Of a stretch of DNA of 64,000 nucleotides, positions 1,295-42,689 are shown one piece after another (position 1 is the first letter of the stretch; each line of letters opens with the position of its first letter). The translations under genes and the position numbers were made by a program. The notes below the pieces were generated by a model. That model searched no databases, was not told where the DNA came from, and saw nothing but the letters and a program-made list of their open reading frames with translations. The stretch spans positions 64,001 to 128,000 of the forward strand of contig CAVXJS010000008.1 in the NCBI GenBank assembly GCA_963762145.1, read 5' to 3'. The DNA comes from an uncultured Candidatus Rokubacteria bacterium. GTDB lineage: Bacteria > Methylomirabilota > Methylomirabilia > Rokubacteriales > CSP1-6.

Positions 1295-2439
1295 CTACCG
1301 GCTGCCGGGGGTGACGCGGAGGAGGCGTCCGTTGCTGTCGTCGGTCAGCAGGTAGAGCGAGCCGTCCGGGCCCTGCGCGCACGTCGCGGATCCGCGCGCC
1401 GACGCTCCGCCAGGTAGCGCTCCTCGCCGCGCCACGCGGCCGTTCGTCGATCCGCAGCCGCACGAGCGCGCCCGGGCTGAGCGAGCCGACGAAGAGGTCG
1501 CCCTTCCAGTCGGCGAACGCGTCGCCCGTGTAGAACGTGGCGCCGGACGGGGCGATCACCGGATCCCAGTAGTACACGGGCTGCTCCATGCCCGCCTTCG
1601 CGGTGCCATCGCCGATACGCGCGCCCGAGTAGTCCACGCCGTAGGTGATGACCGGCCAGCCGTAGTTCTTCCCCGGCTGCGGGTTGTTGAGCTCGTCGCC
1701 GCCGCGCGCGCCGTGCTCGACCGTCCACAACTCGCCGCGTCGCGGTCGAGCGCCGCCGCCTGGACAGTTGCGGTGGCCGAGCGACCAGATCTCGGGCAGC
1801 GCGCCGGCGCGGCCCACGAACGGATTGTCGCGGGGCGCCGAGCCGTCCGGCGTTGATGCGCACGATCTTGCCGAGCGTGGTCGAGAGATCCTGCGCGCGC
1901 TCGCGCTGGGCGTAGCGGTCGCCGAGCGTGACGAAGAGCGTGCCGTCGCGCGCGGAAGACCAGGCGCGAGCCCCAGTGATTGGGCCCCTCCACCTTGGGC
2001 TGCTGGCGCCAGATCACCTGGGTGCCCTCGAGCCCGCGCTCGCCGAGCCGCCCGCGCGCCACCGCGGTGCCCGCGCCGCCCTGGCCCGGCTCCGAGAACG
2101 AGAGGTAGACGAGCTGGTCCTGCGCGAAGCCGGGGCTGAGCGCCACGTCGAGCAGCCCGCCCTGCCCGCGCGCGTAGACCTCGGGCACGCCGGTGAGCGG
2201 CTCGGAGAGCTGCCCGCCCGCGCTCACGATGCGCAGGCGCCCCGGCCGCTCGGTCACGAGGAAGCGCCCGTCGGGCAGGAGCTCCACGCCCCAGGGATGG
2301 TCGAGCCCGCGCGCGACGTCGGTGACCGTCGCGGCCAGCTTGACCGCGGCCGGCGTCGGCGAGCGCAGCGCCTCCTGCGCCAGCGCGGGCAGGACGAGGA
2401 GCGCGAGCGCCGTCAGGACGACCGCGAGCCGGGAGCGCA

Positions 2440-2440
<1 letters not shown>
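1295..2440 (-). CDS. PQQ-dependent sugar (glucose/sorbosone) dehydrogenase, YliI-like (frameshifted)
   Basis: Signal peptide; LDHPWG...LVTERPGRLR; GQGGLLDVALSP; HWGSRLVF; EIWSLGHRN; EHGARGGDELN; NYGWPVITYG; IAPSGATFYTG. Confidence 0.85.
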
Positions 2441-3646
<1,206 letters not shown>

Positions 3647-3668
3647 TGAGTGCTTCCCTCCCGCGCCC

Positions 3669-3687
3669 ATCATACATCTGCTATCTT
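3669..3687. promoter_or_regulatory. Candidate back-to-back -10 elements for the P450 and the TPP-enzyme operon
   Basis: Minus-strand TATGAT (3669-3674) and plus-strand TG-C-TATCTT (3679-3687) in the 79-bp divergent gap. Confidence 0.4.
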
Positions 3688-3725
3688 CTCGGCAACCCCT
3701 CACCGACAGCAGGAAAGGACAGGCC

Positions 3726-5373
3726 ATGGCCACGATCACGGGATCGGAAGTGCTGGCGCAGGCGCTCAAGTCGCAGGGCGTGGACACGATGTTCTATCTG
3801 ATGGGCGGCCCGATGCTCGAGACCGAGGCGGCCTGCATCAAGCTCGGCATCCGCGCGATCGACACGCGCCACGAGCAGGCGGCGGCGATGGCGGCGCACG
3901 CCTGGACGCGCGTGACGCGGCGGCCCGGCGTGGCCATGGGCTGCTCGGGTCCCGGCGCCATCAACCTGGTCACCGGCGTGGCGAACGCCTTGACCGACTG
4001 CGCGCCGCTGGTCGCCATCGGCGGCTCGAGCCCGCGCGTGTTCCTCGGCATGGAGGCCTTCCAGGAGATCGACCAGGTCGCCCTGATGAAGCCCATCACC
4101 AAGTGGGCGGAGCGCATCTACGACGCCAGGCGCATTCCCGAGGTGGTCGACACCGCGTTCCGCCAGGCGACCAGCGGCCGGCCCGGCCCCGTGTACCTCG
4201 ACCTGCCCGGCGACGTCCTGGGCGAGAAGATCGAGGAGGAGCAGCTCCACTACCCCGGCCCCTGGCGCCCGGCGCCGCGCAGCCTCGGCGACCCGAACGC
4301 GGTGCGCGAGGCCATCGCGCTGCTGGCCAAGGCGGAGCGCCCGCTGGTCATCGCCGGCAGCGGCGTGTGGTGGTCGGACGGCGCGGCCGCGTTCCAGGCC
4401 TTCGTCGAGGCCACCGGCATCCCGTTCTACACGACGCCGATCTCGCGCGGCATCGTGCCGGAGGATCACGCGCTCGCGTTCCTGAACGCGCGCAGCAAGG
4501 CCTTCACCGAGGCCGACGTGGTGCTGGCGGTCGGCACGCGGTTCAACTAGGTGATCCAGTTCGGCCGGCCGCCGCGCTTCGCGGCCGACCTCAAGGTGAT
4601 CCAGGTCGACATCAACCCGACCGAGCTCGGCCACAACCGCCCGGTCGACGTGCCCATCGCGGGCGACGCGCGCGCGGTGCTCGAGCAGCTCCGCGCGGAG
4701 GCCAAGGGCAAGATCGACGCCCAAGCGCTACGCGGCCTGGACCGGCAAGCTCCGCACGCTCGACGCGGAGAAAGGCGCCGAGCTGGACAAGGCGATGTGC
4801 CGCGACGAGACGCCGATCCACCCGCTGCGGCTCTGCAAGGAGGTGCGCGACTTCATGCGGCGCGACGCCATCCTGGTCGTCGACGGCCAGGAGATCCTGA
4901 ACTTCGGCCGCCAGTCCATCCCGACCTTCGTGCCGGGCCACCGGCTGAACTCGGGCGCGTTCGGCACCATGGGCGTGGGCCTGCCCTTCGGCATCGGCGC
5001 GAAGGTGGCCAAGCCCGACGCGCAGGTGGTGGTGCTGCACGGCGACGGCTCGTACGGCATCAATGCCATGGAGATCGACACGGCGGTGCGGCACAAGATC
5101 CCGGTGCTGGTGGTGATCAGCAACAACGGCGGCTGGACCGCGGACGCCCCGTGGACCAGGCCCCTGCCCAAGCCCGGACGCAACCTCGGCTACACCCGCT
5201 ACGACCGCGTCGCCATGGAGCTGGGCGCGCACGGCGAGTTCGTGGAGAAGCCGCACGACATCCGCCCGGCGCTCGAGCGCGCGTTCGCCTCGGGCAAGCC
5301 GGCGGTGGTCAACGTCATCACCGATTCCAAGGCGCGCGCGACGACCGTGCGGTTCTCGGCGTACACGACATAG
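3726..5373 (+). CDS. TPP-dependent enzyme, oxalyl-CoA decarboxylase/2-hydroxyacyl-CoA lyase-like (in-frame TAG 4548-4550, frameshift ~4725)
   Basis: RHEQAAAMAA, GRPGPVYLDLP, GTRFN*VIQFG, HRLNSGAFGTMGVG, GDGSYG...NNGG TPP motif. Confidence 0.85.
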
Positions 5374-5388: not shown

Positions 5389-6586
5389 ATGGCCAAGGCC
5401 CTCGACGGGATTCGCGTCCTCGACCTGACCCAGTACGAAGCGGGACCGAGCTGCACCCAGATGCTGGCGTGGCTCGGGGCGGAGGTCATCAAGATCGAGC
5501 CGCCCACCGGCGAGCCCGGCCGCACCGCGCTGTCCGACAAGCGGGGCGAGGACGCGTGGTTCTTCCTGCTGCTCAACTCGTGCAAGAAGGGCGTCACCCT
5601 CAACCTGAAGTCCGAGCGCGGCCGCGCGATGTTCCTCGACCTGGTCAAGACCGCCGACGTGGTGGTCGAGAACATGGGCCCGGGCGCGATGGATCGCCTC
5701 GGCCTCGGCTGGGAGGCGCTCCACGCGCTCAACCCGCGGCTGATCGCGGCCTCGGTGAAGGGCTTCGGCGGCGGCGGGCCTTACGCCGACTACAAGAGCT
5801 TCGAGTGGATCGCGCAGGCCATGGCCGGCGCCATGAGCATGACCGGCTCGCCCGACGGCCCGCCCACCAAGGCCATCGGGGGTCTGGCCGACACCGGCGC
5901 GGGCCTGCACTACCGCGATCGGCATCCTGGCCGCCATCATCCAGCGCCAGGCCACCGGGGTGGGCCAGCAGGTCGAGGTTGCCCAGCAGGAGTCGGTGGT
6001 GAACCTCCTCCGCATCCACCTGCGCGAGAGCTACGCCACCGGCAAGCCGGCGCCGCGCCAGGGCAACCGCTCGGCGGCCGCCGCGCCGTCGAACATCTAC
6101 CGCTGCCAGCCCGGCGGGCCCAACGACTACGTGTTCATCCACTGCGCCACCGTGGACATGTGGAGGGCGCTGACCCGGATCGTCGGGCGGCCCGAGATGG
6201 GCGACGACCCGCGCTACCACGACCGGCGCGACCGCGTGCAGATCGTCGACGAGATCGACGCGATGATCGAGGCGTGGACCGAGAAGCGTACCAAGCTCGA
6301 GGTGATGGAGATCATGGCCGGCGCCGGCGTGCCGTGCGGCGCGGTGCTCGACTCCACCGAGATCCTGGCCGACCCGCACATGCGCAAGCGCCGCTTCATC
6401 GTCGATCTCGAGCACCCGCGCCGCGGCCCCTACCCGATGCCGGGCAACCCGGTGCGCCTCTCCGACTCCCCCACCGAGGTCGGCCGCTCGCCGCTCCTGG
6501 GCGAGCACAACGCCGACGTCTACGGCCGCCTGCTCGGCTACAAGCCCGAAGACGTCGACCAGCTGAAGCGCGACGGCATCATCTAA
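5389..6586 (+). CDS. Family III CoA-transferase, formyl-CoA transferase-like (frameshift ~5912)
   Basis: [33 protein letters not shown], catalytic [24 protein letters not shown]. Confidence 0.88.
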
Positions 6587-6593
6587 CATATCT

Positions 6594-6628
6594 CCCTCTC
6601 CCCTCTGGGGAGAGGGCAGGGTGAGGGG
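6594..6628 (+). repeat. REP-like palindrome copy 2
   Basis: CCCTCTCCCC-TCT-GGGGAGAGGG-CAGGGTGAGGGG just after the stop codon. Confidence 0.8.
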
Positions 6629-6676
6629 CCAGAAGGTGAGGGCCTGCAGGATGAGGCGGCCCGTCAGGAGAGCAAG

Positions 6677-7612
6677 ATGAGCGACAACCACGCCGTAGTC
6701 GTCGATCCCGCAACCTCCGGCCGCCTGGTTCTCCGCCCGGTCCCCGACCCGACGCCCGACCGTGACGAAGCGATCGTCCGGGTGCGCGCGATCTCCCTGA
6801 ACCGCGGGGAGGTGCGCCGCTCGACCATGGCCGCCGCCGGCTGGCGCCCCGGCTGGGACCTGGCCGGCCACGTGGAGCGCGCGGCGGCCGACGGCAGCGG
6901 GCCCCAGGTCGGCGCGCGCGTGGTCGGGCTGCTGGCGGAAGGCGCCTGGGCCGAGCGCGTGGCCGTGCCCACCCACGCGCTCGCCGAGCTGCCCGAGAAG
7001 GTCACGTTCTCGCAGGCCGCCACCTTCCCGGTGGCCGGCCTCACCGCGCTGCACGCGCTCGGCAAGAACGGGCCGCTCCTCGCCCGTCGCGTGCTGGTGA
7101 CCGGCGCAACCGGTGGCGTCGGCGACTTCGCGGTGCAGCTCGCGCGCCTGGGCGGCGCGCACGTGACGGCCAGCGCCCGCCGCGCCGATCAGGTCCCCGC
7201 GCTGCGCCAGCTCGGCGCGCACGAGGTGACGGTGGGCGACGAGATCCCATCCTCGCCCAAGTACGATCTGATCGTCGAGTCGGTGGGCGGCCGCACCCTC
7301 GGCACCGCCCTCGCGGCGCTCCAGCGCGGCGGGGTCTGCGTCACCCTCGGCGTCTCCGCCTCCGCCGACGTCACCTTCGATGCCCGCACGTTCTTCGCCA
7401 CCGGCCGCACCACGCTCTACGGGCTCTATCTCTTCAGCGAGCTCGGCGCCGAGCCCGCGTCGGTCGGCCTGCGCCGCCTCGCCGACCTGGTGGCCGCGGG
7501 CCAGCTCGCGCCGCACATCAGCGTGGAGCGGCCCTGGACCGAGATCGCTCAGGTGGCGGCGGACCTGATCGCGCGCAAGTACCCGGGCAAGGCCGTCCTC
7601 ACGCTCGGCTGA
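6677..7612 (+). CDS. MDR-family (quinone-oxidoreductase-like) dehydrogenase
   Basis: VRAISLNRGE, PGWDLAG, VLVTGATGGVG; no Zn-Cys ligands. Confidence 0.85.
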   Translation: MSDNHAVVVDPATSGRLVLRPVPDPTPDRDEAIVRVRAISLNRGEVRRSTMAAAGWRPGWDLAGHVERAAADGSGPQVGARVVGLLAEGAWAERVAVPTHALAELPEKVTFSQAATFPVAGLTALHALGKNGPLLARRVLVTGATGGVGDFAVQLARLGGAHVTASARRADQVPALRQLGAHEVTVGDEIPSSPKYDLIVESVGGRTLGTALAALQRGGVCVTLGVSASADVTFDARTFFATGRTTLYGLYLFSELGAEPASVGLRRLADLVAAGQLAPHISVERPWTEIAQVAADLIARKYPGKAVLTLG

Positions 7613-7616
7613 GCCC

Positions 7617-8810
7617 GTGCCCAGACTCGACCGGCTGCCTCAGCTCAACCGGAACAACCTGCTGATGCTGCCGGTCCAGGTGAACGACACCGTCCCGTTC
7701 ACGACGCTCTCGAAGCCGCTGGCGGCCTGCCGGGTCGCGATCGTCACGACCGCGGGGCTCCACCGGCGCGACGACCGGCCATTCGGGCCCGGCGAGCAGA
7801 CCTACCGCGTGATCCCGGCCGATACGCCGCTCGCGGAGATCGTCCAGAGCCACACGAGCCTGGGCTTCGACCGCGTCCCGCAGATGCTCGACCCGAACAT
7901 CTCGTTCCCGGTGGACCGCCTGCGCGAGCTGATCGCGCGGGGCGAGCTGGGCGGGACGGCCCCGCATCACTACTCGTTCATGGGCGCGCAGCGGGATCTC
8001 AAGCGCATCCAGGAGGAGACCGGGCCCGAGGTGGGCCGCAAGCTCCGCGATGCGGGCGTGGAGGTGGCCCTCGTCACTCCCACCTGACCCTTCTGCACGC
8101 ACACCGGAGGTGTGCTGGCCCGCGCGCTCGAGAGCGAAGGCATCGCCACGACGTCCATCAGCATGGTGCGCGAGCACACCCAGAAGCTGAAGCCGCCGCG
8201 CGCGCTGTTCGTGCCGTTCCCCTTCGGTCACGCCCTGGGCCGGCCGAACGATCCGGATCTCCAGCACCGTGTGCTGCGCGCCGCGCTGGACCTGCTCGCC
8301 GAGCCGGCCGGCCCGGTGCTCTGCGACTTCTCCGACGACGCCGAGCCCGGCGATCAGCCGCCCGCGCCCGCCCAGGCCTCCGGCATCGCGGCCGCGGCCG
8401 ACGTGCCGGACGATCCCGCGCTCGAGACCGCGCAGATGCGCCAGTACCACGAGCAGTGGCTGGCCCGGAGCGGCGGGCGCACCGCCTTCGGGCTCTCCGG
8501 CGTCCCGGCCACCCGTTTCCGCGGTGTGGTGCGCTTCCTCCAGGCCTTCGCGGAGGGCGAGGACACCGACATGGAGGAGCGCCCGGCCACGGTCCCGCTG
8601 CCGGGCTTCATCCGCTACTGCGCGGACGACTGGAAGGCGCTCTACTTCGAGGCGCGCCTCGCGATGAAGCCGGGCGTCACCGGCGACGAGGTCGCGCGAT
8701 GGTTCTGGAGCGAGACGGCGGCGGGCCAGGTGCTGCGGCGCGTGGGCAAGCGGCTGGAGGCCTCGGAAGACGCGCGCTGGAAGGCGGCCGCGTTCGGGGT
8801 GGCGCGGTAG
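7617..8810 (+). CDS. PrdB/GrdB-like selenoprotein (Sec at TGA 8085-8087) with C-terminal extension, 397 aa
   Basis: ORFs 7617-8087 and 8112-8810 share a frame and are separated only by TGA. Read-through gives VALVTPT-U-PFC-THTGGVLARALESEGIAT...PPRALFVPFPFG. The N-half has the PrdB-type motifs RVAIVTTAGLH, NISFPVDRLREL and SFMG. Confidence 0.85.
8088..8115 (+). promoter_or_regulatory. Putative bacterial SECIS hairpin
   Basis: GCACACC(8099-8105)-GGA-GGTGTGC(8109-8115): 7-bp stem with a G-containing loop 18 nt after the UGA. Confidence 0.7.
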
Positions 8811-8813
8811 GCT

Positions 8814-8848
8814 CCCCTCACCCTGCCCTCTCCCCGGAGGGGAGAGGG
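8814..8848 (-). repeat. REP-like palindrome copy 3 (reverse orientation)
   Basis: CCCCTCACCCTG-CCCTCTCCCC-GGA-GGGGAGAGGG between convergent genes. Confidence 0.8.
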
Positions 8849-8865
8849 AGAGGGCGGGAAGGGTG

Positions 8866-10473
8866 CTACTCGGCCAGCCACACCGTGTCGAGCTGGCAGT
8901 TCAGGAAGTGGCTCGGGGTGATCGTCCAGCCGCGCACCTTGGACAGATGCGGCACGATGCGGTTCCACTGGAACGTCATGATGAAGTGCACTTCCTCGTC
9001 GTAGAGCCGCTTCTCGAAGGCGCGCAGAACCTTCTTCCGCTCCTCCGGGTCGGTGGCGCGCGACTGCCGCACGTAGAGATCGTCCATCACCGTGTCCTTG
9101 TGGCGACTGAAGTTGACCGGTGACGTGCTCATGAACCAGTGCAGATCCATGTCGGGCTCGACGATGGAGTTGCACGGGGCGTTGGTCGACACCTCGAAGT
9201 CGCCGCTCTTCTGCACCGACAGCCACGCCGCCGACTCCAGGCTCACCTGCTTGACGTTGAGGCCGACCTGGCGCCACTGGTCGATCAGCCAGATGCCGAC
9301 CGGCTCGTAGGGCATCGGCACCGCGCGGTTGGTCAGCGTGAAGGACAGGCCCTCCTGGCCGGCCTCCTTCAGCAGCCGCCGCGCCTCCGCGCGCGCGGCG
9401 TTGATGTCGGTGCCGTAGCCGGCCAGCTTCTTGAGCTCCTCGGGCGGCGTCGCCCACGGGGTGCCGGGCACCTGGATCCCCGCCACGTCCTTCACCACCG
9501 CGATCTTGGAGAGCGCGGCCGAGCCCGCGTAGCGATCCAGCGCCAGGCTGAGCGCGCGGCGCACGCGCTTGTCCTGGAACGGCTTCTTCTCCTGGTTCAT
9601 CGCCACCTGGATCGAGCAGTTCCACGGGCTCTCCTGCACCGTGATCTTGTTACCGAGGGCCTGCACGAGCGAGTCCCGCTGCGAGGGGCTGAAGCCGCGG
9701 AACTGGACCATGGCCCGCTCGCCGCGGATGGCCGCCACCTGGGCCCCCGCGTCCTGGATGAAGATCGCGCGGTAGCCGTCCAGATACGGCTTGCCCTTGT
9801 CCCAGTAGTCGGGGTTCTTCTTGCCCACCCAGTGCGAGCCGCGCACGTACTCGACGAACTTGAAGGGGCCGGTACCGTTGATGTTCTTCTCGTGCCAGCG
9901 CGGGTCCTTGGCGAGGAGCTCGGCCCGGTAGATGTAGTTCCACGGCGACGAGACGTTGGCGATGAACGACGCCTCCGGCGCCTTCAGCCGGAACACCACC
10001 GTGTCCGGGTTCGGCGCCTCGACCGACTCCACGCCCCGGTAGGCGGCCTGCCGGCTCGAGACCACGCCCTGGGGCGGGAAGATGATGTGGTCGTAGGAGG
10101 CCTTCACGTCGGCCGAGGTCATCAGCGCGCCGTCGTGGAACTTCACGCCCCGGCGCAGCTTGAAGGTGTAGACGCGCTTGTCCGGCGACACGGTCCACGA
10201 CTCCGCGAGGTCGCCGATGAACTTGGTGCCGGTCCGGTCGGTGGGATCGACCCGCATCAAGGTGTTGTAGTGCGGCCCGGTGGGGTGGAGCATCGCGAAG
10301 GTCTCTTCGCGGTGGCCGTCGAAGCTCGGCGGCTCGGCCGCGACCACGAAGACCAGCTCACCACCCGAGCGCGGCTGCTCCTGGGCGACGGCCGGCGCGG
10401 GGGCGCCGAGCGAGAGGGCGAGAACGAGACAGCCGAGGATCGCCAGTGATCGCGAGAACGGGATCATGTCCAC
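8866..10473 (-). CDS. ABC transporter substrate-binding protein, family 5 (peptide/nickel)
   Basis: Signal peptide; GDLAESWTVSPD, FKLRRGVKFHDG, GTGPFKF, KKNPDYW. Confidence 0.9.
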   Translation of the reverse strand: MDMIPFSRSLAILGCLVLALSLGAPAPAVAQEQPRSGGELVFVVAAEPPSFDGHREETFAMLHPTGPHYNTLMRVDPTDRTGTKFIGDLAESWTVSPDKRVYTFKLRRGVKFHDGALMTSADVKASYDHIIFPPQGVVSSRQAAYRGVESVEAPNPDTVVFRLKAPEASFIANVSSPWNYIYRAELLAKDPRWHEKNINGTGPFKFVEYVRGSHWVGKKNPDYWDKGKPYLDGYRAIFIQDAGAQVAAIRGERAMVQFRGFSPSQRDSLVQALGNKITVQESPWNCSIQVAMNQEKKPFQDKRVRRALSLALDRYAGSAALSKIAVVKDVAGIQVPGTPWATPPEELKKLAGYGTDINAARAEARRLLKEAGQEGLSFTLTNRAVPMPYEPVGIWLIDQWRQVGLNVKQVSLESAAWLSVQKSGDFEVSTNAPCNSIVEPDMDLHWFMSTSPVNFSRHKDTVMDDLYVRQSRATDPEERKKVLRAFEKRLYDEEVHFIMTFQWNRIVPHLSKVRGWTITPSHFLNCQLDTVWLAE

Positions 10474-10576
10474 CTCCGGTGGTGGGTCGGATAAGGGTCG
10501 AGGGCGAGTCTACCAGATGCGGCCCGTGGTAGTCTCTTGGCCGTCCCACTCTCGGTGAGATGGCAGGAGGCGCCCT

Positions 10577-12127
10577 ATGACCCGTGCGCTCCGACCGCTC
10601 GTCCTTGATGCGCTGGCGCTGTGCGGGGCCCTGCTGGCCCTGTGCGCCGCCGCCCCCGCCGGGGCGCAGCCGAGCAGCACCGTCACCGTCGCGGCGCACA
10701 TCACGCTGGCGACCCGCTGGCTGGATCCGGCGGAGACCGATTCCGAGATCACGCCGTTCATGATCTTCTACGCGCTCCACGACGCCCTCGTGAAGCCCAT
10801 GCCCGGCGCGCTCAACTCCCCGAGCCTCGCGGAGTCGTGGAGCATGTCGAAGGACGGGCGCACGTGGGAGTTCGTGCTGCGGAAGGGCGCGCGCTTCCAC
10901 AACGGCGATCCGGTCACCGCCGAGGACGTGAAGTTCTCCTTCGAGCGCTATCGGGGCGCGGCCGCGCCGATCCTGAAGGACCGGGTCCGCGACGTGCAGG
11001 TGGTGGACCCGGGCCGGGTGCGCTTCCACCTGAAGGACCCGTGGCCGGACTTCATGACCTTCTACGGCACGAGCGCCTCGGGGGCCGCCTGGATCGTGCC
11101 CAAGAAGTACTTCGAGCGGGTCGGCGAGGAGGGCTTCCGCAAGGCGCCGGTCGGGGCCGGGCCGTACAAGTTCGTGAGCTTCCAGCCCGGGATCGAGCTG
11201 ACCCTCGAGGCCTTCGACGGCTACTGGCGCAAGCCCCCGAGCGTCAAGCGCCTGGTGATGCGCAGCGTCCCCGAGGAGTCCACGCGCGCCGCCGCGCTCA
11301 AGCGCGGCGAGGTGGACATCGCCTACTTCCTCAACGGCCCCATCGCGGAGGACGTCCGGCGCACCCCCGGGCTGACGCTGACCGCGATGCGCACCAACGG
11401 CGTGCTGTTCCTGATGTTCCCGGAGCAGTGGACGGCCGGCTCGCCGTGGGCGGACCGGCGCGTGCGGCTGGCCGCGAGCCTCTCGGTGGACCGCCAGGCG
11501 ATCAACGAGGCCGAGTCGCTCGGCTTCTCCGGCCCCACCGGCAACATCGTGCCCCGGCACCAGGAGTTCGCCCTGCCGATCCCGGCCGATCCCTACGACC
11601 CGAAGCGCGCCAAGGCGCTGCTGGCCGAGGCCGGGTTCCCCAACGGCTTCGACGCGGGCGAGTTCACGCCGTTCCCGCCCTACAACTCGATGGGCGAGGC
11701 CATCGCCAACTACTTCGGGGCGGTCGGCATCCGCACGCGCGTGCGCACGATGGAGCGCGCCGCCCTGCTCTCCGCCTGGCGCGACAAGAAGCTCCGCAAT
11801 CTCTTCGTGGGCGCCACCGGCTCCGCGGGCAACGCCTCCACCCGCATCGAGGCGTTCGCCACCGCCAGGGGCGTGCTGTCCTACGGCAGCATCCCGGAGC
11901 TCGAGACGCTCTTCACCGCGCAGCTCCAGGAGATGGACCGCAAGAAGCGCGAGGAGATGCTCCACCAGGTCCAGCGCATGATCCAGGAGCGGGTGATCTT
12001 CGCCCCGATCTGGGAGAACGGGTTCATCCGCGCCTACGGGCCGCGCATGGAGGAAGCCGCGCTGAACCTGATCCCCTCGTTCCCCTACGCGGGCCCCCTC
12101 GAGGACCTGAAGCTCAAGCCCAAGTAA
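10577..12127 (+). CDS. ABC transporter substrate-binding protein, family 5
   Basis: SLAESWSMS, LRKGARFHNGDPVTAEDVKFS, GAGPYKF, YDPKRAKALLAEAG. Confidence 0.9.
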   Translation: MTRALRPLVLDALALCGALLALCAAAPAGAQPSSTVTVAAHITLATRWLDPAETDSEITPFMIFYALHDALVKPMPGALNSPSLAESWSMSKDGRTWEFVLRKGARFHNGDPVTAEDVKFSFERYRGAAAPILKDRVRDVQVVDPGRVRFHLKDPWPDFMTFYGTSASGAAWIVPKKYFERVGEEGFRKAPVGAGPYKFVSFQPGIELTLEAFDGYWRKPPSVKRLVMRSVPEESTRAAALKRGEVDIAYFLNGPIAEDVRRTPGLTLTAMRTNGVLFLMFPEQWTAGSPWADRRVRLAASLSVDRQAINEAESLGFSGPTGNIVPRHQEFALPIPADPYDPKRAKALLAEAGFPNGFDAGEFTPFPPYNSMGEAIANYFGAVGIRTRVRTMERAALLSAWRDKKLRNLFVGATGSAGNASTRIEAFATARGVLSYGSIPELETLFTAQLQEMDRKKREEMLHQVQRMIQERVIFAPIWENGFIRAYGPRMEEAALNLIPSFPYAGPLEDLKLKPK

Positions 12128-12128
12128 T

Positions 12129-12164
12129 CCCTCTCCCCCCTGGGGAGAGGACAGGGTGAGGGGG
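12129..12164 (+). repeat. REP-like palindrome copy 4
   Basis: CCCTCTCCCC-CCT-GGGGAGAGG-ACAGGGTGAGGGGG between convergent stops. Confidence 0.8.
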
Positions 12165-12169
12165 TGGTC

Positions 12170-13117
12170 CTATTTCCCCTTCAGCTTGGGCAGGAGCTTC
12201 GCCGCCGCCTCGTCCACCTGCGCGAGCTGATCGCCCCCCGCGAAGCGCAGCGCGAGATGCCGCGCGCCCGCGTCGATCCAGCGCCCGAGCCATTCCACGC
12301 AGCCCTCGATCGGCCCCGCGTAGGTGGCCTGGCGGGCCATCATCGCGGCGGCGGGCGCCGCGTAGTAGGTCTCGAGGAACTGGTGCAGGCGCTGCTCCGC
12401 CTTCGCCTTGTCGGGATCCAGGGCGAGCGTCACGTAGGCCGCGCCCGACACCGCGTCGGCGGGCCGACCCGCCGCGCGCGCCGCGGCCTGGATGCGCGGG
12501 AAGTGCTCGGCGAAGAACGTCGCGCTCGGCCCGGTCGGGAACCACGCGTCGAAGCGCGCGGCCTCGCGGAAGGCGGTCGGGCCCCCGCCCCCGATCCAGA
12601 TCGGCGGCCCCCCCGGCCGGTGCGGCCTGGGTCCGACGGTGGCGCCGTCGAGCGTGAAGTGCTTGCCGTTGAACGTGACGCCGTCGCGCGTCCAGAGCGC
12701 GCGGCAGATCTCGATCGTCTCGAGGAAGCGCCCCACCCGGCGCTCCCAGGGCACCCCGCACGCCGCGAACTCCTGGCGGATCGCCGGCGTGTCGGCCGCG
12801 ATGCCGACGCCCAGGATCACGCGCCCCTCCGAGATCCGATCCACCGTGGCGATGAGATGCGCGAGCACCACCGGGTTGCGCAGCGCGGGCAGCAGCACCC
12901 CGGTGCCGAGGCGTACCCGCTTCGTGCGGGCGGCGATGGCGGCCATCAACGTGAGCGGCTCGTGGCGCGGCCGCGCGGTGATCGAGTCGCCGATCCAGAC
13001 CGAGTCGAAGCCGGCCGCCTCCGCGCGCTCCGCCATCGTGAGCAGCGGCCCCGTCTCGGGGCGCCCGGACATGATCGCCTCGCGGGTGGGAATCAGCACG
13101 CCGAACTCGACGGGCAT
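12170..13117 (-). CDS. LLM-class flavin-dependent oxidoreductase
   Basis: True start MPVEFGVLIP; AEAAGFDSVWIGDS, RVRLGTGVLLPALRNP, GGPPIWIGG. Confidence 0.88.
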   Translation of the reverse strand: MPVEFGVLIPTREAIMSGRPETGPLLTMAERAEAAGFDSVWIGDSITARPRHEPLTLMAAIAARTKRVRLGTGVLLPALRNPVVLAHLIATVDRISEGRVILGVGIAADTPAIRQEFAACGVPWERRVGRFLETIEICRALWTRDGVTFNGKHFTLDGATVGPRPHRPGGPPIWIGGGGPTAFREAARFDAWFPTGPSATFFAEHFPRIQAAARAAGRPADAVSGAAYVTLALDPDKAKAEQRLHQFLETYYAAPAAAMMARQATYAGPIEGCVEWLGRWIDAGARHLALRFAGGDQLAQVDEAAAKLLPKLKGK

Positions 13118-13119
13118 GG

Positions 13120-16100
13120 CTACCTCCTGACCAGATCCTCGACTTCGCGAATGAGGGGCGACGATTCGAGCCCCGCCCGCAGGGCGGGATCCCGGGTCGC
13201 CGCGCGCAATGCGGTGATGATATCCCAGGCTCCGCGATAGCGCCCGAGCGCGTCCTCCCGCCGCCCCCGTGCCGCGTCGAGCCGCCCGAGGGCCACGTGG
13301 CAGAGCCAGGTCTGGCGCGGCTGGCCGATCGCCGTCGCGAGCGCGAGCGACCGCCGCAGCGCCTCCTCCGCTTCCCCCCACACCCGCCGCGCGGTGGCGC
13401 TCTCGCCCTTGAGGCGCCAGGCCCAGGTCTCGAACTTGCGCGACGCCGTCGGCACGATGAACTCGAGGCTCTCGTCGGCGTGCCGGCGGGCCCCGTCGGC
13501 GTCGCCGCGCATCAGGGCGAGCTGGCCCTGGCTCACGTGGCAGTGCATCGCATAGCGCCAGGTCATCCAGCGGGACGGCGGCGGATTCCGCACGATCGCG
13601 CTCGACTCCGCCAGCGAATCGGCCGCGCTGGCGAGATCGCCCCGGGCCATCCAGGCGTCGGCCTCGTTGTTCCGGATGAAGGCCCGGCGCTCGGCGCCGG
13701 TACTGTGGCCGGCGCGGGACGAGCGCCCGGTCGCCTCGTAGGAGCGCTCGGACAGCTCCATGCCCCGGTCGAGGTCGCCGCACTCCAGGTAGAGCCACCC
13801 GAGCGTGTTCTGGTAGCGCGGGATGAAGGAATCGTCGCCGATCCGCTCGGCCATGGTCAGGCCTTCCGTCAGGGCGGCGAGCCCGGCGTCGTACTCGCCC
13901 AGGTCGTTCCACGCCGCGCCCTGGTTCCAGAGGCAGCGCAGCAGCGGCATGACCAGGCGATGCTCGCGGGCGAGGCGAACCCCCTCGCTGGCCGCCTCGA
14001 GGCTCTCCCGGTACTCGCCCCGCCAGGCCGAGCGCAGCGCGAGCGTGTGCAGCGCGAGCACCTGCCGGCCCAGATCGCCCACCGCCCGGCCGATGGCGAG
14101 GGCACGCTCGGTGTCCTCCTTCGCGGCGTCCAGCTCTCCGCTGACCGCGTGCACGAACCCGCGGACGATGAGGCCCCCGGCCAGCGGCCGCTGGGCTCCC
14201 GCGGCCTCCGCCAGCTCGATCGCCTCGCGCGCCCGCTCCAGAGCTCCCGGGAAGTCCTCCGCCCACTGGAGCGCCGAGGCGCCCTGGATCAGCGCATTGG
14301 CCTCCGCGGGACGATCCTGTACCCTCCGGGCCAGATCCACGAGGATCTCGGCCGCCTCCCGCGAGCGCGGGAAGTCGCCCACGCCGAAGAAGAGGTCCGC
14401 CCGGGCGGAGTGGATGGCCATGAGCGTCGTCGCGGGCACGCGATCTCCGAGGCTGTCCGCGGCGCGCAGCGCCTCCTCGTAGAGATCGAGGGCCTGCCGA
14501 AACCCGAAGGCCTGGGTCGCTTTCTCGGCCGCGCGGATCAGGTAGGTGAGGGCGCGCTCGGGATCGTCGGTGCGCGAGAAGTGATGCGCGAGGACCTCGA
14601 AGTGCTCGGGGAGGCGATCAGGGTAGAGCTCCTCGATGGCCGTGCCGACGAGGCGGTGGAGCTCGCGGCGCCGCTGGACGAGCAGGGAGGCGTAGGCCAC
14701 GTCCTGGGTCAGCGCGTGCTTGAAGCCATAGGCCAGCTCGGGAAACCGGCGCCGCTCGTGGATCAGCTCGAGCGCGCTCAGCTCTCGCAGGGCGCCGTCG
14801 GTGCCCTCGCCGACCTGGGACACACGATCGACCAGGCGCCGGCTGAACTCGCGCCCGATCACCGACGCGAGCTGGAGCGTGATCTTGGGCGCCTCGGCGA
14901 GCCGGTCGACCCGCGCGGCGATCACGTCCTGGATGCGGTCCGGCACCGTGATCTGCGAGAGGGGCCGGGTCAGCGTCAGCCGGCCGTCCACCGTCTGGAG
15001 GGCCCCGGTCTCCTCGAGGGCACGGACCAGCTCCTCGATGTAGAACGGGTTGCCCTCGGCCTTGTCCGCGACGAGGCTCCGGAGCTCCCCGGGTAGCGCG
15101 CCGACCGCCAGCACCGCCTGGGCGATGCGCGCGCTCTCCTCCGAGGACAGCGCGGCCGGCACCACGCGCGTGAAGTAGCTCCGCTCGCCGAACGGGCTCG
15201 CGTAGCCCGGGCGGTAGGTGAACACGAGCAGCGCGCGCAGCGCGGGCACGCTCTCGGTCAGGGTCGTGAGGAACTGCTCGCTCACCCCGTCGATCCAGTG
15301 CAGGTCCTCGATCACCACCACCTGCGGCCGCGCCTCCGCGCTGCGCACGAGCATGCCCCGCAGCGCCTCGACGGTCTCGGCGCGCCGCTGCGCGGGCGGC
15401 ATCGCCTCCACGTCGGCGCTCCCCGGGTCGATGGACAGGAGCGCGCGGAGATAGGGCGCCGCCGGCGCAAGCTCCGGATCGATCGCGGCGAGGCCCCGCT
15501 CGACCTTTGCGGCGATCGCCGCCTCCGTGTCCCCATCCTCGATGCCGAGCAGCCGCCGGAGCAGGTCGATCAGCGGGTGGAACGGCATGGCCCGGCCGAA
15601 GGACAGGCAGTGCCCCTCGTGCCACGCGGCCTCGCCGCCGATCCGCCGGCGCAGCTCTGCGAGCAGGCGCGACTTGCCCATGCCCGCGTCCGCCACGAGG
15701 AACGCCACCTGCCCCTGCCCGCCGCGGGCGCGCTCGAAGGCCTCGAGCAGGAGTCCCAGCTCCCGCTCCCGTCCCACGAACGGCGTGAGCCCGCCCTCGG
15801 CCGAGACCTCGAGCCGCGTGCGGGTCTCGCGGGCGGTCAGCACTTCCCACGCGGTCACCGGCTCGGCCTTCCCCTTGACCGCCAGCTCCCCGAGCGACCG
15901 CGTCTCGAAGAAGCCGCGCACGAGGCGGTGGGTCGCGTCCGAGATCGTCACGTGCCCGGGCTCCCCCGCCTGCTGCATGCGCGCGGCCACGTTGGTGGCG
16001 TCGCCGACCGCGGTGTAGTCCATGCGGAGGTCGCTGCCGATGCTGCCCACCACCACGAGCCCGGTGTTGAGCCCCTGACGGGCGCGAAAGCGAATGCCGC

Positions 16101-19856: not shown

Positions 19857-20842
19857 CTACTCGATCAGGTGATCCGCCCGCTGCAGGAGCGACGGCGGCA
19901 TCGTGAGACCGAGGGCTTTGGCGGTCCTCAGGTTGATGACCAGCTCATACTTCGCGGGCTGCTGGATGGGAAGATCGGCAGGCTTCGCGCCCTTGAGGAT
20001 CTTGTCCACATAGGCCGCGGCGTGGCGGGAGAGTTCGACGATACCGCTGCCGTATGACATCAGGCCGCCCACTTCCACGTGCTCGCGCACTCGTAGATCG
20101 CGGGCAAGCGGTACTTGGCGGCTCGCTCGACGATCTGCTTCCGGTCGCGAGTGAGGATGGGGCTCGGGAGGACAAAGAGCGCCTCGCTTCTCTCCGAAAC
20201 CATCCTCGCGAAGGCGCGGTCGTAGTCACTACCCTGAATCTCGACGACGACCAGCTTGACCCGCAGGGCTGACGCCGCCTTCTGCGCCTCCTGCAGCGAA
20301 TCCCCGCCGTGTCCACCGACAGCGAGGACCGCGAGCCGCGCGACCCCCGGGACCGCTTCCATGATCAACTCCAACCGTTTGCCGGCGAGCGCGGTCTCGC
20401 CAGCGGTTGTCACCCCGGTGATGTTCCCGCCTGGCCTTGAAAGGCTTGCCACCCATCCCCTCGCGACAGGATCGCCGCCAAAGATCATGACGATTGGGAC
20501 TGTTGCTGTCGTGTCTTTTGCGGCCTGAACGGCCGGCTCGCTCAAGGCGACGATGACGTCCACCTGGAGCCCCACCAGCTCGCGGGTGAGCTGGGGAAGC
20601 CGGTCGATTCGGCCATCCGCGAATCGTCGCTCGACGACGAGGTTTCGGCCGTCGACGTAGCCCAGCTCGCGCAGGGCCACGGGGACAAGGTTCGGTGCCG
20701 TGGCAACCGAGGGGTCTGGGACCCCGCCGGGCGAGAGGATGCCCACACGGGACACCTTCCCCGTCTGCTGCGCCTCGGCGGCGAGCGGCGAGTGGAGGAG
20801 CGCGCCCGCCGCCGCCGCGATGAAGGCCCGGCGGCCGATCAC
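19857..20842 (-). CDS. PF04392-type ABC substrate-binding protein (frameshift ~20090)
   Basis: IGRRAFIAA Tat-like start; [52 protein letters not shown]. Confidence 0.85.
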
Positions 20843-21823
20843 TCGATCACCTGGTCCGCCCGCTGCAAGAGCGACGGCGGGATCGTCAGGCCGAGGGCCT
20901 TAGCGGTCTTGAGGTTCAGCACCAGCTCGAACTTCGTGGGCTGCTCGAGCGGAAGCTCGGCGGGTTTTGCGCCGCGCAGGATGCGGTCGACGTACACCGC
21001 GGCGCGCTGAAATCGATCCAGGCGGCCGGGACCGTAAGAGAGCAGCCCCCCTTCGTCCGGAAACTGCCGTTGCTCATAGAACGCAGGCAGGCGGTGGCGC
21101 TCCGCGAGCTCGACGACCCGTCGCGAGTCGCCGTGGAGCATCGGGTCCGACACCACGATCAACGCGTCGGTACCCAGCCGGGCCATCTTGTCGAATGCCC
21201 CCGCAAGGTCTCCCCCCTTGCGGACATCTACCACATGAGCCCGTACCGACAAGGGTCTTGAGGCCGCTTCGATGGCACGAACGACCGGCGGGGTCGTGGG
21301 GTTCGCCAAGTTCGCGAGCACACCGATGATGTCCGCCTTGGGGAGGATCTCTCGAATGAGCTGAAGGCGTTTCCCACTCAGCTCCGGCGCGAAGCCCGAT
21401 ACCCCGGTTGACGTTGCCGCTCGGGCGCGCCAGGTCCGGCACCACGCCTGCACTCAGCGCATCCCCGAGCGTCTCGATGACGATAGGGATCGTACTTGTC
21501 GCCTGCATCGCTGCCTTGATGGCGGGCGCCGCGACCGCGAAGATCGCATCCGGCTTCCGGACAACCAGCTCGGTCGCCAGGGCCGGAAGCCGATCGTACC
21601 GGTTGTCGGCATACCGAAAGTCCAGAGCCAGATTCTTGCCTTCGATCCACCCGAGCTCCGATAGACGCGCACGGAATGCCTTGAACGTTTCGGCGTCTGG
21701 AACGGCGGATCCAGCGACGAGGACACCCACCCGCGCGACTCTCCCGGACGGCTGAGGCTGAGCAGCGACCGGCGCGGCGAGGAAGCTTCCGGCCACCGTT
21801 CCAAGGAAGGTACGTCGGTCCAC
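20839..21823 (-). CDS. PF04392-type ABC substrate-binding protein (frameshift ~21408)
   Basis: DRRTFLG start; LSELGWIEGKNL, LARPSGNV, GKRLQL, GGLLSYG, YVDRILRGAKP, RADQVIE; GTGA overlap with the next copy. Confidence 0.85.
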
Positions 21824-24051: not shown

Positions 24052-24057
24052 CCGCCC

Positions 24058-25266
24058 GTGACCGACCGGGCGCTGACCGGCCTCCGCATCCTCGACCTCA
24101 CCCAGTTCGAGGCGGGCACCTCCTGCACCCAGCTCCTGGGCTGGCTGGGCGCCGACGTCATCAAGATCGAGCCGCCCGGCGGCGAGCAGTCGCGCCGGAA
24201 CCGGCCGGAGGTGCCGGGGCTCGACGCGATGTTCTTCCTGCTCTTCAACTCCAACAAGCGCAGCGTCACCATCGATCTCAAGAAGCCGGAAGGCCACGCG
24301 CTGTTCCTCCAGCTGGCCGAGCGGGCGGACGTGGTGGTCGAGAACTTCGCCCCCGGCCTGATGGAGCGGCTCGGGCTCGACTGGGAGCGCCTGCGCGCGG
24401 TGAATCCGCGCATCATCCTCGCGCGCCTCAAAGGCTTCGGCCTCTCGGGCCCGTATCACGAGTTCAAGAGCTTCGACATGATCGCCCAGGCGATGGGCGG
24501 CGTGATGAGCGTCACCGGCTTCCCGGACCGCGAGCCCGTGCTCTGCGGCGCCAACATCGGCGACAGCGGCGCCGGCGTGCACATGGCGGCCGGCATCATG
24601 GCCGCGGTCATCGAGCGGCAGCGGACGGGCCGGGGCCAGACGGTGGAGGTCTCCATGCAGGAGGCGGTGGCGAATCTCATCCGCCAGCGCTACGTGGTCC
24701 ACTACCGCGACGGCAAGCCCACGCCCCGCCGGGGCAACGGCGCGCCGCCGGGCGCGGTGCCCGACGGGCTCTACGCGTGCGCGCCGGGCGGCCCCAACGA
24801 CTACGTCTACATCTACGTGCAGCCGATGAACCAGGGCATGTGGCAGGACTTCGCCCGCGCGATCGGGCGCGAGGACCTGCTCGCCGACCCGCGCTGCGTC
24901 GACGCGGCTACCAGATGGGCTCATCGGGACGCGCTCAACGGCATCGCGCGGGCCTGGACGGGCGCGCGCTCCAAGCAGGAGGTGCTCGAGACGCTCGGCA
25001 AGGCGGGCGTGCCGTGCGGCGCGATCCTGGACACGCAGGAGGTGCTGGACGACCCGCACATGAACGCGCGCGGCGCCGTCCTGACGATCGATCATCCGAC
25101 GCGCGGCCGGTTCCGGGTGCCCGGCTGCCCGATCCGCCTGTCATCCTCCGAGCCGGTGACGACGCCGCCGCCGCTGGCGGGCCAGCACACCGACGAGGTC
25201 CTGGCCGAGGTGCTGGGCCTGTCGCCCCAGGCGGTGGCGGATCTGCGGGCACGCGCCGCGATCTGA
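24058..25266 (+). CDS. Family III CoA-transferase (formyl-CoA transferase-like)
   Basis: [48 protein letters not shown]. Confidence 0.9.
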   Translation: MTDRALTGLRILDLTQFEAGTSCTQLLGWLGADVIKIEPPGGEQSRRNRPEVPGLDAMFFLLFNSNKRSVTIDLKKPEGHALFLQLAERADVVVENFAPGLMERLGLDWERLRAVNPRIILARLKGFGLSGPYHEFKSFDMIAQAMGGVMSVTGFPDREPVLCGANIGDSGAGVHMAAGIMAAVIERQRTGRGQTVEVSMQEAVANLIRQRYVVHYRDGKPTPRRGNGAPPGAVPDGLYACAPGGPNDYVYIYVQPMNQGMWQDFARAIGREDLLADPRCVDAATRWAHRDALNGIARAWTGARSKQEVLETLGKAGVPCGAILDTQEVLDDPHMNARGAVLTIDHPTRGRFRVPGCPIRLSSSEPVTTPPPLAGQHTDEVLAEVLGLSPQAVADLRARAAI

Positions 25267-25269
25267 CGC

Positions 25270-25962
25270 GTGCTCTTCGGTCACTCCGCCGCCCTCTGGC
25301 AGCAGTTCCCCCAGCTCGTCCCCGGCGTGCTCGTCGTGGCGGACGTGCGCCCCGACGTGGACGTGCCGCTCGAGCCGTGGCACGCCCGCGCCCGCGAGCG
25401 GCTCGCCCGCGGCCCGGAGTCCGAGCTGGCCGAGGTGTCGGCGTGGCGGCGCGCCTACACGCAGATGGGGCTCAAGCCCACGCAGTACCGGTCCGCGGCC
25501 GAGGCGCTGCTGCGCCGCTTCCGCCGCGAGGGCGATCTGCCGCGGCTGCATCCCCTGGTCGATCTCTGCAACGCGGTCTCGCTCGCCTTCGCCCTGCCGG
25601 TGGCGGTGTTCGACCTGGCCGGGGTCGACTCGCGGCTGGAGGTCCGGCACGCGGTGGGCGGTGAGGAGCACACCGGCTTCGGCGGCGAGACCGAGCGCGC
25701 GGAGCCGGGCGAGGTGATCTTCGTGGACGCGGCCGATCACGCGCACGCGCGGCGGTGGACGTTCCGGCAGAGCCGCCGCTCGACGGTGTCGCCCGGGACG
25801 CGCGACGTGCTGATCGTCGCCGAGGGACTCCACCCCGCGGCCTCGACGGACGTGCCCGCCCTGATCGACGCGCTCGCCACCCACGTCGGCGGGCTGTGGG
25901 GCGCTCCTCGCCAGCGCGCGGTGCTGACCGCCGCGGCGCCGCGGCTCGAGTTCGCGGCCTGA
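25270..25962 (+). CDS. Free-standing B3/B4 (PheRS-beta editing-like) domain protein
   Basis: WRRAYTQMGLKPTQYRSAAEALLRR, LVDLCNAVSL, RRWTFRQS. Confidence 0.85.
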   Translation: MLFGHSAALWQQFPQLVPGVLVVADVRPDVDVPLEPWHARARERLARGPESELAEVSAWRRAYTQMGLKPTQYRSAAEALLRRFRREGDLPRLHPLVDLCNAVSLAFALPVAVFDLAGVDSRLEVRHAVGGEEHTGFGGETERAEPGEVIFVDAADHAHARRWTFRQSRRSTVSPGTRDVLIVAEGLHPAASTDVPALIDALATHVGGLWGAPRQRAVLTAAAPRLEFAA

Positions 25963-38380: not shown

Positions 38381-38395
38381 CCAAGGAGATCAGTC

Positions 38396-38704
38396 ATGGC
38401 CGAAGTGCTCACGGTGATCGCGAAGATCCGGGCGGTGAAGGGCAAGGGCGACGCGCTGGCCGCGCTGCTCAAGGAGCAGGTGGCCGTCGTCACGAAGGCG
38501 GAGCCGGGCCTCCTGATCTACCGTCCGCATCGCTCCAGCAAGGATCCCGACCTCTTCATCTTCTACGAGCAGTACAAGGACGACGCCGCCTTCGAGGTGC
38601 ACCGCAAGGCGCCGTACCTGGCCGCCTACCGGGAGCGCCGCGAGAAGGAAGGCCTGACCGAGGGCCCCGCCGAGGTCGAGATCTACCGCTCGCTGACGGA
38701 CTAG
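38396..38704 (+). CDS. ABM-domain protein (putative quinol monooxygenase)
   Basis: AEPGLLIY, FIFYEQYKDDAAFEVH; RBS AAGGAG. Confidence 0.88.
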   Translation: MAEVLTVIAKIRAVKGKGDALAALLKEQVAVVTKAEPGLLIYRPHRSSKDPDLFIFYEQYKDDAAFEVHRKAPYLAAYRERREKEGLTEGPAEVEIYRSLTD

Positions 38705-42667: not shown

Positions 42668-42689
42668 GACGATGATCGCTCCGGCCGCG

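Follow-up and report, generated by a model that had tools for sequence, protein, structure and literature searches.

We analysed a 64,000-nucleotide stretch of DNA (the window) from an uncultured Candidatus Rokubacteria bacterium (GenBank assembly GCA_963762145.1, contig CAVXJS010000008.1, positions 64,001 to 128,000) and focused on the segment at 7617-8810. This segment is one gene encoding a selenoprotein of ~43 kDa, a mis-annotated member of a known superfamily in an undescribed architecture. Taken together, the evidence is best explained by a single selenoprotein gene whose product joins a PrdB-like domain to a helical domain, belongs to a family with selenocysteine (Sec) and cysteine (Cys) forms, works outside Stickland fermentation and likely performs reductive chemistry; we put the probability of this joint explanation at roughly 0.8.

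An in-frame UGA read as selenocysteine

The coding features are as follows.
7617..8810, + strand: complete selenoprotein gene, 397 codons, GTG start, TAG stop, Sec at codon 157
8085..8087, + strand: UGA read as selenocysteine (U157) in the motif U-P-F-C160, from codon conservation and the Cys in homologues
8096..8117, + strand: hairpin of the selenocysteine insertion sequence (SECIS) type, core stem 8099-8105 / 8109-8115, loop 8106-8108, two lower pairs with a bulged C

The open reading frame (ORF) at 7617-8087 (156 amino acids, GTG start) and that at 8112-8810 lie in one frame, broken solely by TGA 8085-8087. The sequence-only reading, made earlier on the same DNA, had joined them through TPT-U-PFC-THT, which frame and translation bear out. 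Read-through yields 397 residues containing ALVTPT-U157-PFC160-THTGGVL, and full-length Cys homologues (394-399 amino acids) match this product end to end.

Homologues were collected from proteins and genomes. Among 5.8 billion proteins, a word-indexed search matched 908, the best 120 of which were classified. HMMER, run exhaustively against 1.84 billion cluster representatives, gave 2531 relatives at E ≤ 1e-3 (115 of them at E ≤ 1e-30), the best 150 of which were classified by span. A scan of 185,579 species genomes with two peptide patterns from the window protein's subfamily gave 197 relatives, of which 80 loci were kept. These loci were labelled Methylomirabilota/Rokubacteria (34), Chloroflexota (26, mostly Dehalococcoidia), Entotheonella/Tectimicrobiota (6), Actinomycetota (6), Acidobacteriota (4), Binatia (2) and other (2); 79 were informative after exclusion of L043, which is truncated at the site. 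Three loci 72-84% identical to the window protein (L003, L006 and L011) were labelled Deferrimicrobiaceae, Limnocylindria and Micromonosporaceae, and their closest relatives are all Methylomirabilota; the labels possibly reflect mis-binning or recent transfer.

The codon at the site was TGA in 76 of the 79 informative loci, across at least six phylum-level labels, and TGC in the other three: L037 (an Actinomycetota metagenome-assembled genome), L040 (Umezawaea) and L077 (Streptomyces). The best 120 of the 908 protein matches comprised 115 C-terminal halves of 228-233 amino acids (mostly 232) beginning just past the TGA site, largely from Methylomirabilota/Rokubacteria and mostly named 'hypothetical protein'. 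The remaining five were full-length proteins of 394-399 amino acids with 49-53% identity and Cys in place of U, in the motif TPTCP[FV]CTHT (four of five) or TPSCPVCTHT (one of five). The best 150 cluster representatives were distributed around the site as follows.
Site spanned, Cys: 37
Site spanned, other residue or gap: 13
Start just after the site: 57
End just before the site: 12
Other fragments: 31

Cys therefore occupied the site in 37 of the 50 representatives that span it. In an alignment of 17 diverse full-length homologues the residue was Cys in 15 and C160 was invariant, and the protein halves on both sides of the TGA were conserved across independent assemblies and phyla. The proposal that standard annotation would split a selenoprotein here is strongly supported by the recurrent TGA, the aligned Cys, the hairpin and the half-length records, and the suggested check for Cys or Sec at the site likewise returned Cys in all five close full-length homologues and in 15 of 17 diverse ones, besides the 76 TGA loci.

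The hairpin pairs GCACACC (8099-8105) with GGTGTGC (8109-8115) around the loop GGA (8106-8108); its stem begins 11 nt after the UGA and its loop 18 nt past it, in agreement with the earlier description. Its folding energy was -12.4 kcal/mol, compared with -7.5 ± 2.2 kcal/mol for synonymous recodings drawn from the window's codon usage, of which 10 in 5000 were as stable. Across 77 TGA-bearing sequences (76 loci and the window, 70 of them distinct) the hairpin was conserved in all 77, with 91.4% of cells paired. The five core pairs (16-30 to 20-26) were paired in 68-70 of the 70 distinct sequences, and pair 19-27 was AU in 62, GC in 6 and GU in 2, a compensatory AU-to-GC change. Column 27, at the third position of its codon, stays T (GGT, AGT, TGT) despite a GC content at third codon positions (GC3) of ~95% in the window, and the loop and 3' arm use the rare glycine codons GGA and GGT (29 and 27 occurrences among the 729 Gly codons of confidently predicted genes in the window). 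The apical-loop G22 was at least 90% conserved. The mean fold energy of the Sec forms was -11.2 kcal/mol (n = 76 loci), and the Cys forms (n = 3) folded to -2.5, -10.0 and -4.8 kcal/mol, with the hairpin lost in two of three. Judged from these alignments and recodings, the hairpin is conserved and under selection. The spacing of the stem, 11 nt past the UGA, and the conserved apical-loop G would fit the E. coli fdhF type of bacterial SECIS.

A different explanation holds that the TGA is a real stop, arising from nonsense mutation or assembly error, so that the segment would be two genes or a pseudogene and the hairpin a by-product of the encoded peptide. The frameshifted appearance of upstream window genes, a hairpin that is non-significant against plain shuffles and the storage of the halves as separate database proteins would all suit such damage. 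A stop or damage does not explain why the TGA recurs in 76 of 79 loci, which come from independent assemblies and phyla and keep both protein halves; nor does it explain the Cys at this position in unsplit homologues or a hairpin that outranks 4990 of 5000 synonymous recodings in stability and has decayed in two of three Cys forms. Conservation effectively refutes this explanation, which we consider scarcely credible.

A variant genetic code, in which UGA is read as Trp, Gly or Cys, would equally open the frame, as would any code that makes TGA a sense codon. However, TGA is the ordinary stop of the gene lying 4 nt before the selenoprotein start, which encodes a medium-chain dehydrogenase/reductase (MDR), and of many high-GC3 window ORFs, so a variant code is no explanation. 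The aligned residue in homologues is the Cys of a CxxC redox motif, and the downstream hairpin is position-specific, both of which also count against this reading; we give it practically no weight.

Because Sec/Cys pairing, codon conservation and the hairpin provide three independent lines, we take TGA 8085-8087 to be a selenocysteine codon and not damage. By homology, the window protein belongs to a large family of Sec and Cys forms that occurs in Methylomirabilota, Chloroflexota, Tectimicrobiota, Acidobacteriota, Binatia and Actinomycetota; its Sec forms are routinely mis-annotated as two ORFs.

Domain architecture and distance from PrdB and GrdB

The protein was divided into two domains.
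7686..8303, + strand: PrdB-like catalytic alpha/beta domain (residues 24-229), from TIGR04483, Pfam GRDB and a confident fold
8394..8807, + strand: family-specific C-terminal helical domain (residues ~260-397, six helices), predicted local distance difference test (pLDDT) mostly above 88, with homologue conservation

Residues 24-229 matched positions 16-220 of 238 in the NCBIfam PrdB model TIGR04483 with 145.1 bits (E 2.3e-42), below the equivalog cut-off of 300 bits. The selenoprotein-B subfamily model TIGR01918 scored 39.8 against a cut-off of 65.45 over model positions 204-419 of 431; the match opens at position 204, and the N-terminal ~200 residues of full-length GrdB are absent. The Pfam search proposed earlier gave a divided answer: GRDB (PF07355) matched residues 18-156 (7668-8084) at profile positions 206-347 of 347 and passed its gathering score (32.3 vs 22 bits), but the protein falls below both NCBIfam cut-offs. 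The Pfam match stops at the final profile position, one residue ahead of U157, and the profile seems to represent no more of the family than what precedes the Sec codon.

The window protein carries the Sec or Cys of a UxxC motif at the conserved position expected of PrdB, and its 397 residues exceed the ~240 of a single-domain PrdB. Residues ~230-397, an extra region of 168 residues, lie beyond all PrdB and GrdB models; the sequence-only reading had noted about 150 extra residues here. Its description of this region as unusual was overstated, since the domain aligns throughout the homologues and is the norm of the whole family; the C-terminal residues D338, Y343, W362, T367 and G370 were at least 90% conserved, even among homologues of 29-37% identity.

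An AlphaFold2 model built from an 18-sequence alignment (pLDDT 88.5, predicted template modelling score 0.89) placed an alpha/beta domain at ~30-240, a disordered linker at 243-258 and a six-helix domain at 267-395. The predicted U157 site lies between a strand (150-154) and a helix (160-173). In the model, U157 and C160 are at the junction of strand and helix N-terminus, which is the classic placement of a redox CxxC, as for the UxxC of D-proline/glycine reductase protein B. The C-terminal domain had no Pfam match, and a PDB sequence search with a profile of 18 homologues returned nothing below E 0.05. Foldseek against PDB gave 0 matches at E ≤ 0.001 (best E 0.028, TM ≤ 0.27), and therefore that library contains no solved structure related to the fold. 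In the ESM Atlas, the C-terminal part of a natural Cys homologue matched unnamed clusters alone, at scores of at most 0.86, within the chance range. Prediction of the C-terminal fold thus produced a confident six-helix model but no Pfam, PDB or named Atlas match. No fused forms were found among proteins of 696-2000 amino acids, which is weak evidence. Within these searches, the helical domain is found only in the window protein's family.

We compared the gene with two characterised systems. PrdB of the Prd system (TIGR04483; Clostridium sticklandii and Clostridioides difficile) shares the homologous catalytic domain, an in-frame UGA followed by a hairpin, and Sec in UxxC, at U157 here and U151 in C. 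difficile according to the accessible text of PMC11229817. The same text states that Prd needs the pyruvoyl protein PrdA, matured by PrdH with PrdB present. Unlike PrdB, the window protein scores below the equivalog cut-off, is ~160 residues longer and ends in a helical domain; its family occurs in Methylomirabilota, Chloroflexota and other non-fermentative lineages, near monooxygenase, CoA-transferase, thiamine pyrophosphate (TPP) enzyme and MDR genes. GrdB/GrdF/GrdH (PF07355, TIGR01918) belong to the same superfamily, with Sec as the presumed nucleophile and a nearby resolving Cys. The window protein matches only the C-terminal half of GrdB, and its UxxC (TPT-U-PFC-THT) differs from the UxxCxxC of GrdB as given in the available portion of PMC13188914.

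Partner genes were sought with Pfam in 67 window ORFs (3 + 31 + 33), a non-exhaustive set because the ORFs were picked by length and GC3, and in 131 ORFs neighbouring related loci (20 cluster representatives from 17 loci and 111 ORFs from 14 loci). No PrdA/GrdE (PF09338-type), GrdA, GrdC or GrdD gene was found among the 67 window ORFs and no PF09338-type gene among the 131 neighbour ORFs; no GrdA, PrdC or sel gene was found in either scanned set, and no PrdA proprotein or PrdH was seen there. Thus neither the co-encoded PrdA (with PrdH) that marks PrdB nor, in the window, the nearby GrdA, GrdE, GrdC and GrdD that mark selenoprotein B accompanied the gene. The earlier statement that the window lacks PrdA, GrdA/C/D/E and sel genes agrees with these scans, and no tRNA was found in it.

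These data bear on whether the gene is a genuine D-proline (or glycine/betaine) reductase B subunit, with PrdA/GrdE encoded elsewhere in the genome. Such an identity would fit TIGR04483 as the best NCBIfam match (E 2.3e-42), the UxxC at the equivalent position and the JGI name of two Cys homologues, 'D-proline reductase (dithiol) PrdB'. It is opposed by the scores of 145 against 300 and 39.8 against 65.45, by the 168-residue domain outside the PrdB/GrdB models, by the absence of a PF09338-type gene from the 67 window and 131 neighbour ORFs, by the aerobic-type gene sets of the hosts and by the need of Prd for co-encoded PrdA and PrdH (PMC11229817, accessible text). We consider a genuine reductase subunit very improbable.

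Genomic context and proposed chemistry

The gene lies among the following features.
164-1255: luciferase-like monooxygenase
Inside 1559-3247, - strand: P450 fragment
3588-5373 (3588-4550 / 4600-5373): TPP enzyme, split by a frameshift; a single 548-amino-acid ORF in L003
5389-6624 (with 5843-6586): family III CoA-transferase, frameshifted
6594..6616: perfect palindrome resembling a repetitive extragenic palindrome (REP), between the CoA-transferase and MDR genes, upstream boundary of the MDR-selenoprotein pair
6677..7612, + strand: MDR-superfamily NAD(P)H oxidoreductase, 311 amino acids (ADH_zinc_N 1.7e-14, ADH_zinc_N_2, ADH_N), TGA stop
8826..8848: second copy of the REP-like palindrome, 16 nt past the selenoprotein stop, downstream boundary of the pair
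8866-10473, - strand: SBP_bac_5 solute-binding protein
10577-12127, + strand: SBP_bac_5 solute-binding protein
38381-38701: ABM monooxygenase

The MDR gene at 6677-7612 ends 4 nt before the GTG of the selenoprotein gene, the spacing that had been reported from the sequence. The palindrome consists of 10-bp arms, CCCTCTCCCC and GGGGAGAGGG, around 3 nt, with three exact copies in the window compared with 0 in 100 shuffles, and resembles an intergenic element of the REP type. Two of the copies flank just the MDR and selenoprotein genes, a placement suggestive of a discrete bicistronic unit; a promoter and terminator scan of 6400-9000 found nothing. The MDR and selenoprotein genes are intact, unlike the frame-split window genes, whose state points to assembly indel errors or pseudogenes, as relatives hold one ORF. 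The aerobic gene set claimed earlier was partly confirmed, by the luciferase-like and ABM monooxygenases; the P450 is a fragment only.

Neighbouring ORFs within ~7 kb were clustered for 78 loci and the window. No neighbour was universal: no non-self cluster occurred in more than 27 loci, and the largest, in 27, consisted of luciferase-like monooxygenases at variable positions. Other recurring neighbours were TPP enzymes, family III CoA-transferases, an Ldh_2 dehydrogenase, branched-chain-type ABC transporters and enolase-superfamily enzymes, and Entotheonella loci had an HpcH aldolase, an enoyl-CoA hydratase and an electron transfer flavoprotein. The Cys-form loci (L037, L040, and L077 at ~6900-14100) lie in catechol/hydroxyquinol-type ring-cleavage clusters with intradiol dioxygenase, dienelactone hydrolase, iron-type alcohol dehydrogenase, CoA_trans A/B, MR_MLE and LysR genes. 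A GCV_H (lipoyl carrier) gene opens 4 nt past the stop in L037 (11186-11608) and L040 (11186-11620), and this GCV_H-like neighbour is a possible dithiol partner of the Cys forms. An RF-1-domain gene (140 amino acids, ArfB-like peptidyl-tRNA hydrolase) was observed upstream on the same strand, ~1-1.9 kb from the Sec codon, in eight Dehalococcoidia/Chloroflexota loci (L051, L053, L054, L055, L063, L064, L066 and L071); its presence beside a UGA-recoded gene may be coincidence.

A same-strand MDR gene lies directly upstream in 14 of the 79 loci, plus the window. The window's MDR type is found there, at a gap of 5-81 nt, in L001, L003, L006, L024, L038 and L039, whose proteins are at least 79% identical to the window protein; three of these loci are labelled Methylomirabilota/Rokubacteria and the others Methylomirabilia, Deferrimicrobiaceae and Limnocylindria. 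In eight Dehalococcoidia loci the upstream MDR is of the zinc-type alcohol dehydrogenase kind, and the two types showed no BLASTP similarity (E 3.5). If the protein were the selenoprotein half of a two-component reductase, with the MDR as obligate partner supplying NAD(P)H electrons or forming a complex, the 4-nt gap, the palindromes around exactly this pair and the upstream MDR in two distant lineages would be accounted for. That reading is countered by the 65 of 79 loci without an adjacent MDR, though 73 hold at least 1000 nt of upstream sequence, and by the two unrelated MDR types; MDR genes are also common, another being present in the window at 34837-35919. MDR enzymes reduce C=O or C=C bonds, not disulfides or selenenyl-sulfides, which further disfavours it. 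An obligate MDR partnership is therefore unlikely. The synteny check proposed earlier did recover an upstream MDR in part of the loci, but as two BLASTP-unrelated subfamilies and with other neighbours in most loci, which leaves the suggested partnership weak.

For the selenoprotein itself, we propose the following scheme. The UGA at 8085-8087 would be decoded as Sec, with the downstream hairpin recruiting SelB and Sec-tRNA(Sec), as conservation suggests. By analogy to the GRDB superfamily, the U157 selenolate would attack a small catabolic intermediate at an electrophilic carbon or sulfur, and C160 would resolve the adduct, leaving a selenenyl-sulfide as in the mechanisms put forward for GrdB and PrdB. 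An external dithiol would then re-reduce the enzyme; thioredoxin is a candidate, and for actinomycete Cys forms the lipoyl GcvH-like neighbour may be another. Because no PrdA or PrdH was seen, the substrate is probably bound by other means, plausibly by the helical domain, which may take over this role in place of pyruvoyl PrdA. For the MDR, a role in the pathway of the same substrate is more probable than direct electron donation; in this lineage its gene forms a tight two-gene unit with the selenoprotein gene. The heterogeneous catabolic contexts argue for a small acid, CoA-ester or amino-acid-derived substrate, without identifying one. The earlier characterisation of the protein as PrdB/GrdB-like, stand-alone and non-Stickland is consistent with the score of 145 against 300 bits, the extra domain and the lack of PrdA in the scanned neighbourhoods, but is unproven. 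More specifically, the family might consist of selenoenzymes that work alone and independently of PrdA, with the helical domain in place of the pyruvoyl subunit, and that cleave C-X (or S-S/S-X) bonds reductively in the aerobic catabolism of soil and ocean bacteria with a dithiol-carrier reductant such as a GcvH-like protein; this version is tentative and, as a whole, rather doubtful.

Several points weigh against our overall interpretation. Pfam scans of the 67 ORFs in the 64-kb window found no selA, selB or selD, the window contains no tRNA of any kind and hence no tRNA-Sec (selC), and a tRNA scan of 60 loci returned ordinary tRNAs only and no tRNA-Sec. Because the window has no sel genes, the Sec-decoding capacity of this organism rests on phylum-level literature, whose accessible parts describe a Methylomirabilota metagenome-assembled genome with 63 predicted selenoprotein genes (PMC13188914) and Sec-type group 4 hydrogenases in Methylomirabilota (PMC13582414). 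The 80 loci are not an unbiased sample and represent one subfamily only, because they were retrieved by two subfamily peptide patterns. For the hairpin, the 61-nt fold alone had z = -0.30, with 76 of 200 dinucleotide shuffles folding equally well; strong conservation of the encoded peptide leaves covariation at two pairs only; and the Cys form L040 retains its fold of -10.0 kcal/mol. A Rfam gathering scan of the whole window gave 0 matches, and a permissive Rfam scan of 8040-8180 gave chance miRNA/lncRNA matches alone (E ≥ 0.96) and no SECIS family. Sequence quality is imperfect, because frameshift-split genes lie just upstream. The neighbourhoods are heterogeneous, with no single pathway, and the chemistry, substrate and reductant are entirely inferred.

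Related selenoproteins have been catalogued before. In the accessible text of the sources, a UxxC 'proline reductase PrdB' ranks among the commonest selenoprotein families in Sargasso Sea data, where it numbered 42 Sec genes and 1 Cys homologue (PMC1088965; Zhang, Fomenko, Gladyshev 2005), Global Ocean Sampling data contain 235 Sec and 110 Cys forms of 'PrdB', assigned to pfam07355 (PMC2398784; Zhang and Gladyshev 2008), and 'proline reductase' selenoproteins are listed for Anaeromyxobacter dehalogenans and Geobacter uraniumreducens (PMC1794560). The marine proteins resemble ours as pfam07355-type UxxC selenoproteins that are abundant in the oxic surface ocean, with Sec forms outnumbering Cys forms, but the available text of these papers (PMC1088965, PMC2398784) treats them as proline reductase, without a distinct architecture. 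Compared by description only, the catalogued 'PrdB' proteins (Sargasso, Global Ocean Sampling, Anaeromyxobacter and Geobacter) are probably the same as, or related to, the window family. To call a UxxC selenoprotein in an oxic setting unusual was accordingly an overstatement, as oxic 'PrdB' has been on record in those two papers since 2005. The fluoroacetate reductase candidates FarB/FarE of Synergistota are another parallel, as the accessible text of PMC10838667 proposes GRDB-family Sec attack on non-C-N bonds; the proposal gives general support for a model of reductive C-X cleavage. FarB/FarE differ, by that text, in being full-length GrdB/GrdE pairs of anaerobes that feed glycine reductase A/C, and such partners were not seen here. 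The literature covered, with subscription journals and supplements outside scope, held no description of the window architecture and none separating the family from true PrdB, and BSepDB (PMC13326102) and an Actinomarina preprint had, in their accessible parts, no match to the terms searched.

The selenoprotein call itself is textbook; what had not been described is how the domains are combined, the missing PrdA and the setting among aerobic catabolic genes. Until now, GRDB/PrdB chemistry has been associated with Stickland fermentation by anaerobes and with a pyruvoyl partner. A Sec-x-x-Cys centre kept in an aerobic gene context, with the partner swapped for a helical domain, suggests an uncharacterised selenium-dependent reaction in soils and oceans. 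Standard pipelines overlook the family in Methylomirabilota, Chloroflexota, Tectimicrobiota and other groups because almost every copy is stored as two 'hypothetical' halves. Should the PrdA-independent version be true, the protein would represent a new enzyme class and would explain the abundance of 'PrdB' selenoproteins in oxic metagenomes. The value of the result lies in the annotation and in a pointer to a widespread uncharacterised selenoenzyme, not in a new principle.

Other features of the window

Two further pairs of same-frame ORFs split by TGA were considered and are not Sec-like. In the pair 24052-25266 / 25267-25962, an entire CoA-transferase precedes a B3_4 protein that is separate from it, and the pair 49252-49656 / 47470-49251 on the - strand belongs to a sensor-kinase region broken at several places. 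Besides the TPP enzyme and CoA-transferase, frame-split regions include an ABC substrate-binding protein (20063-20899 / 20842-21453) and a GAF sensor-kinase (47470-52339, - strand). The third copy of the REP-like palindrome is at 38738-38760. A 931-codon stop-to-stop frame at 39971-42763 on the - strand carries an MR_MLE (enolase-superfamily) domain and then an amidase domain, and represents two same-frame genes or a fusion.

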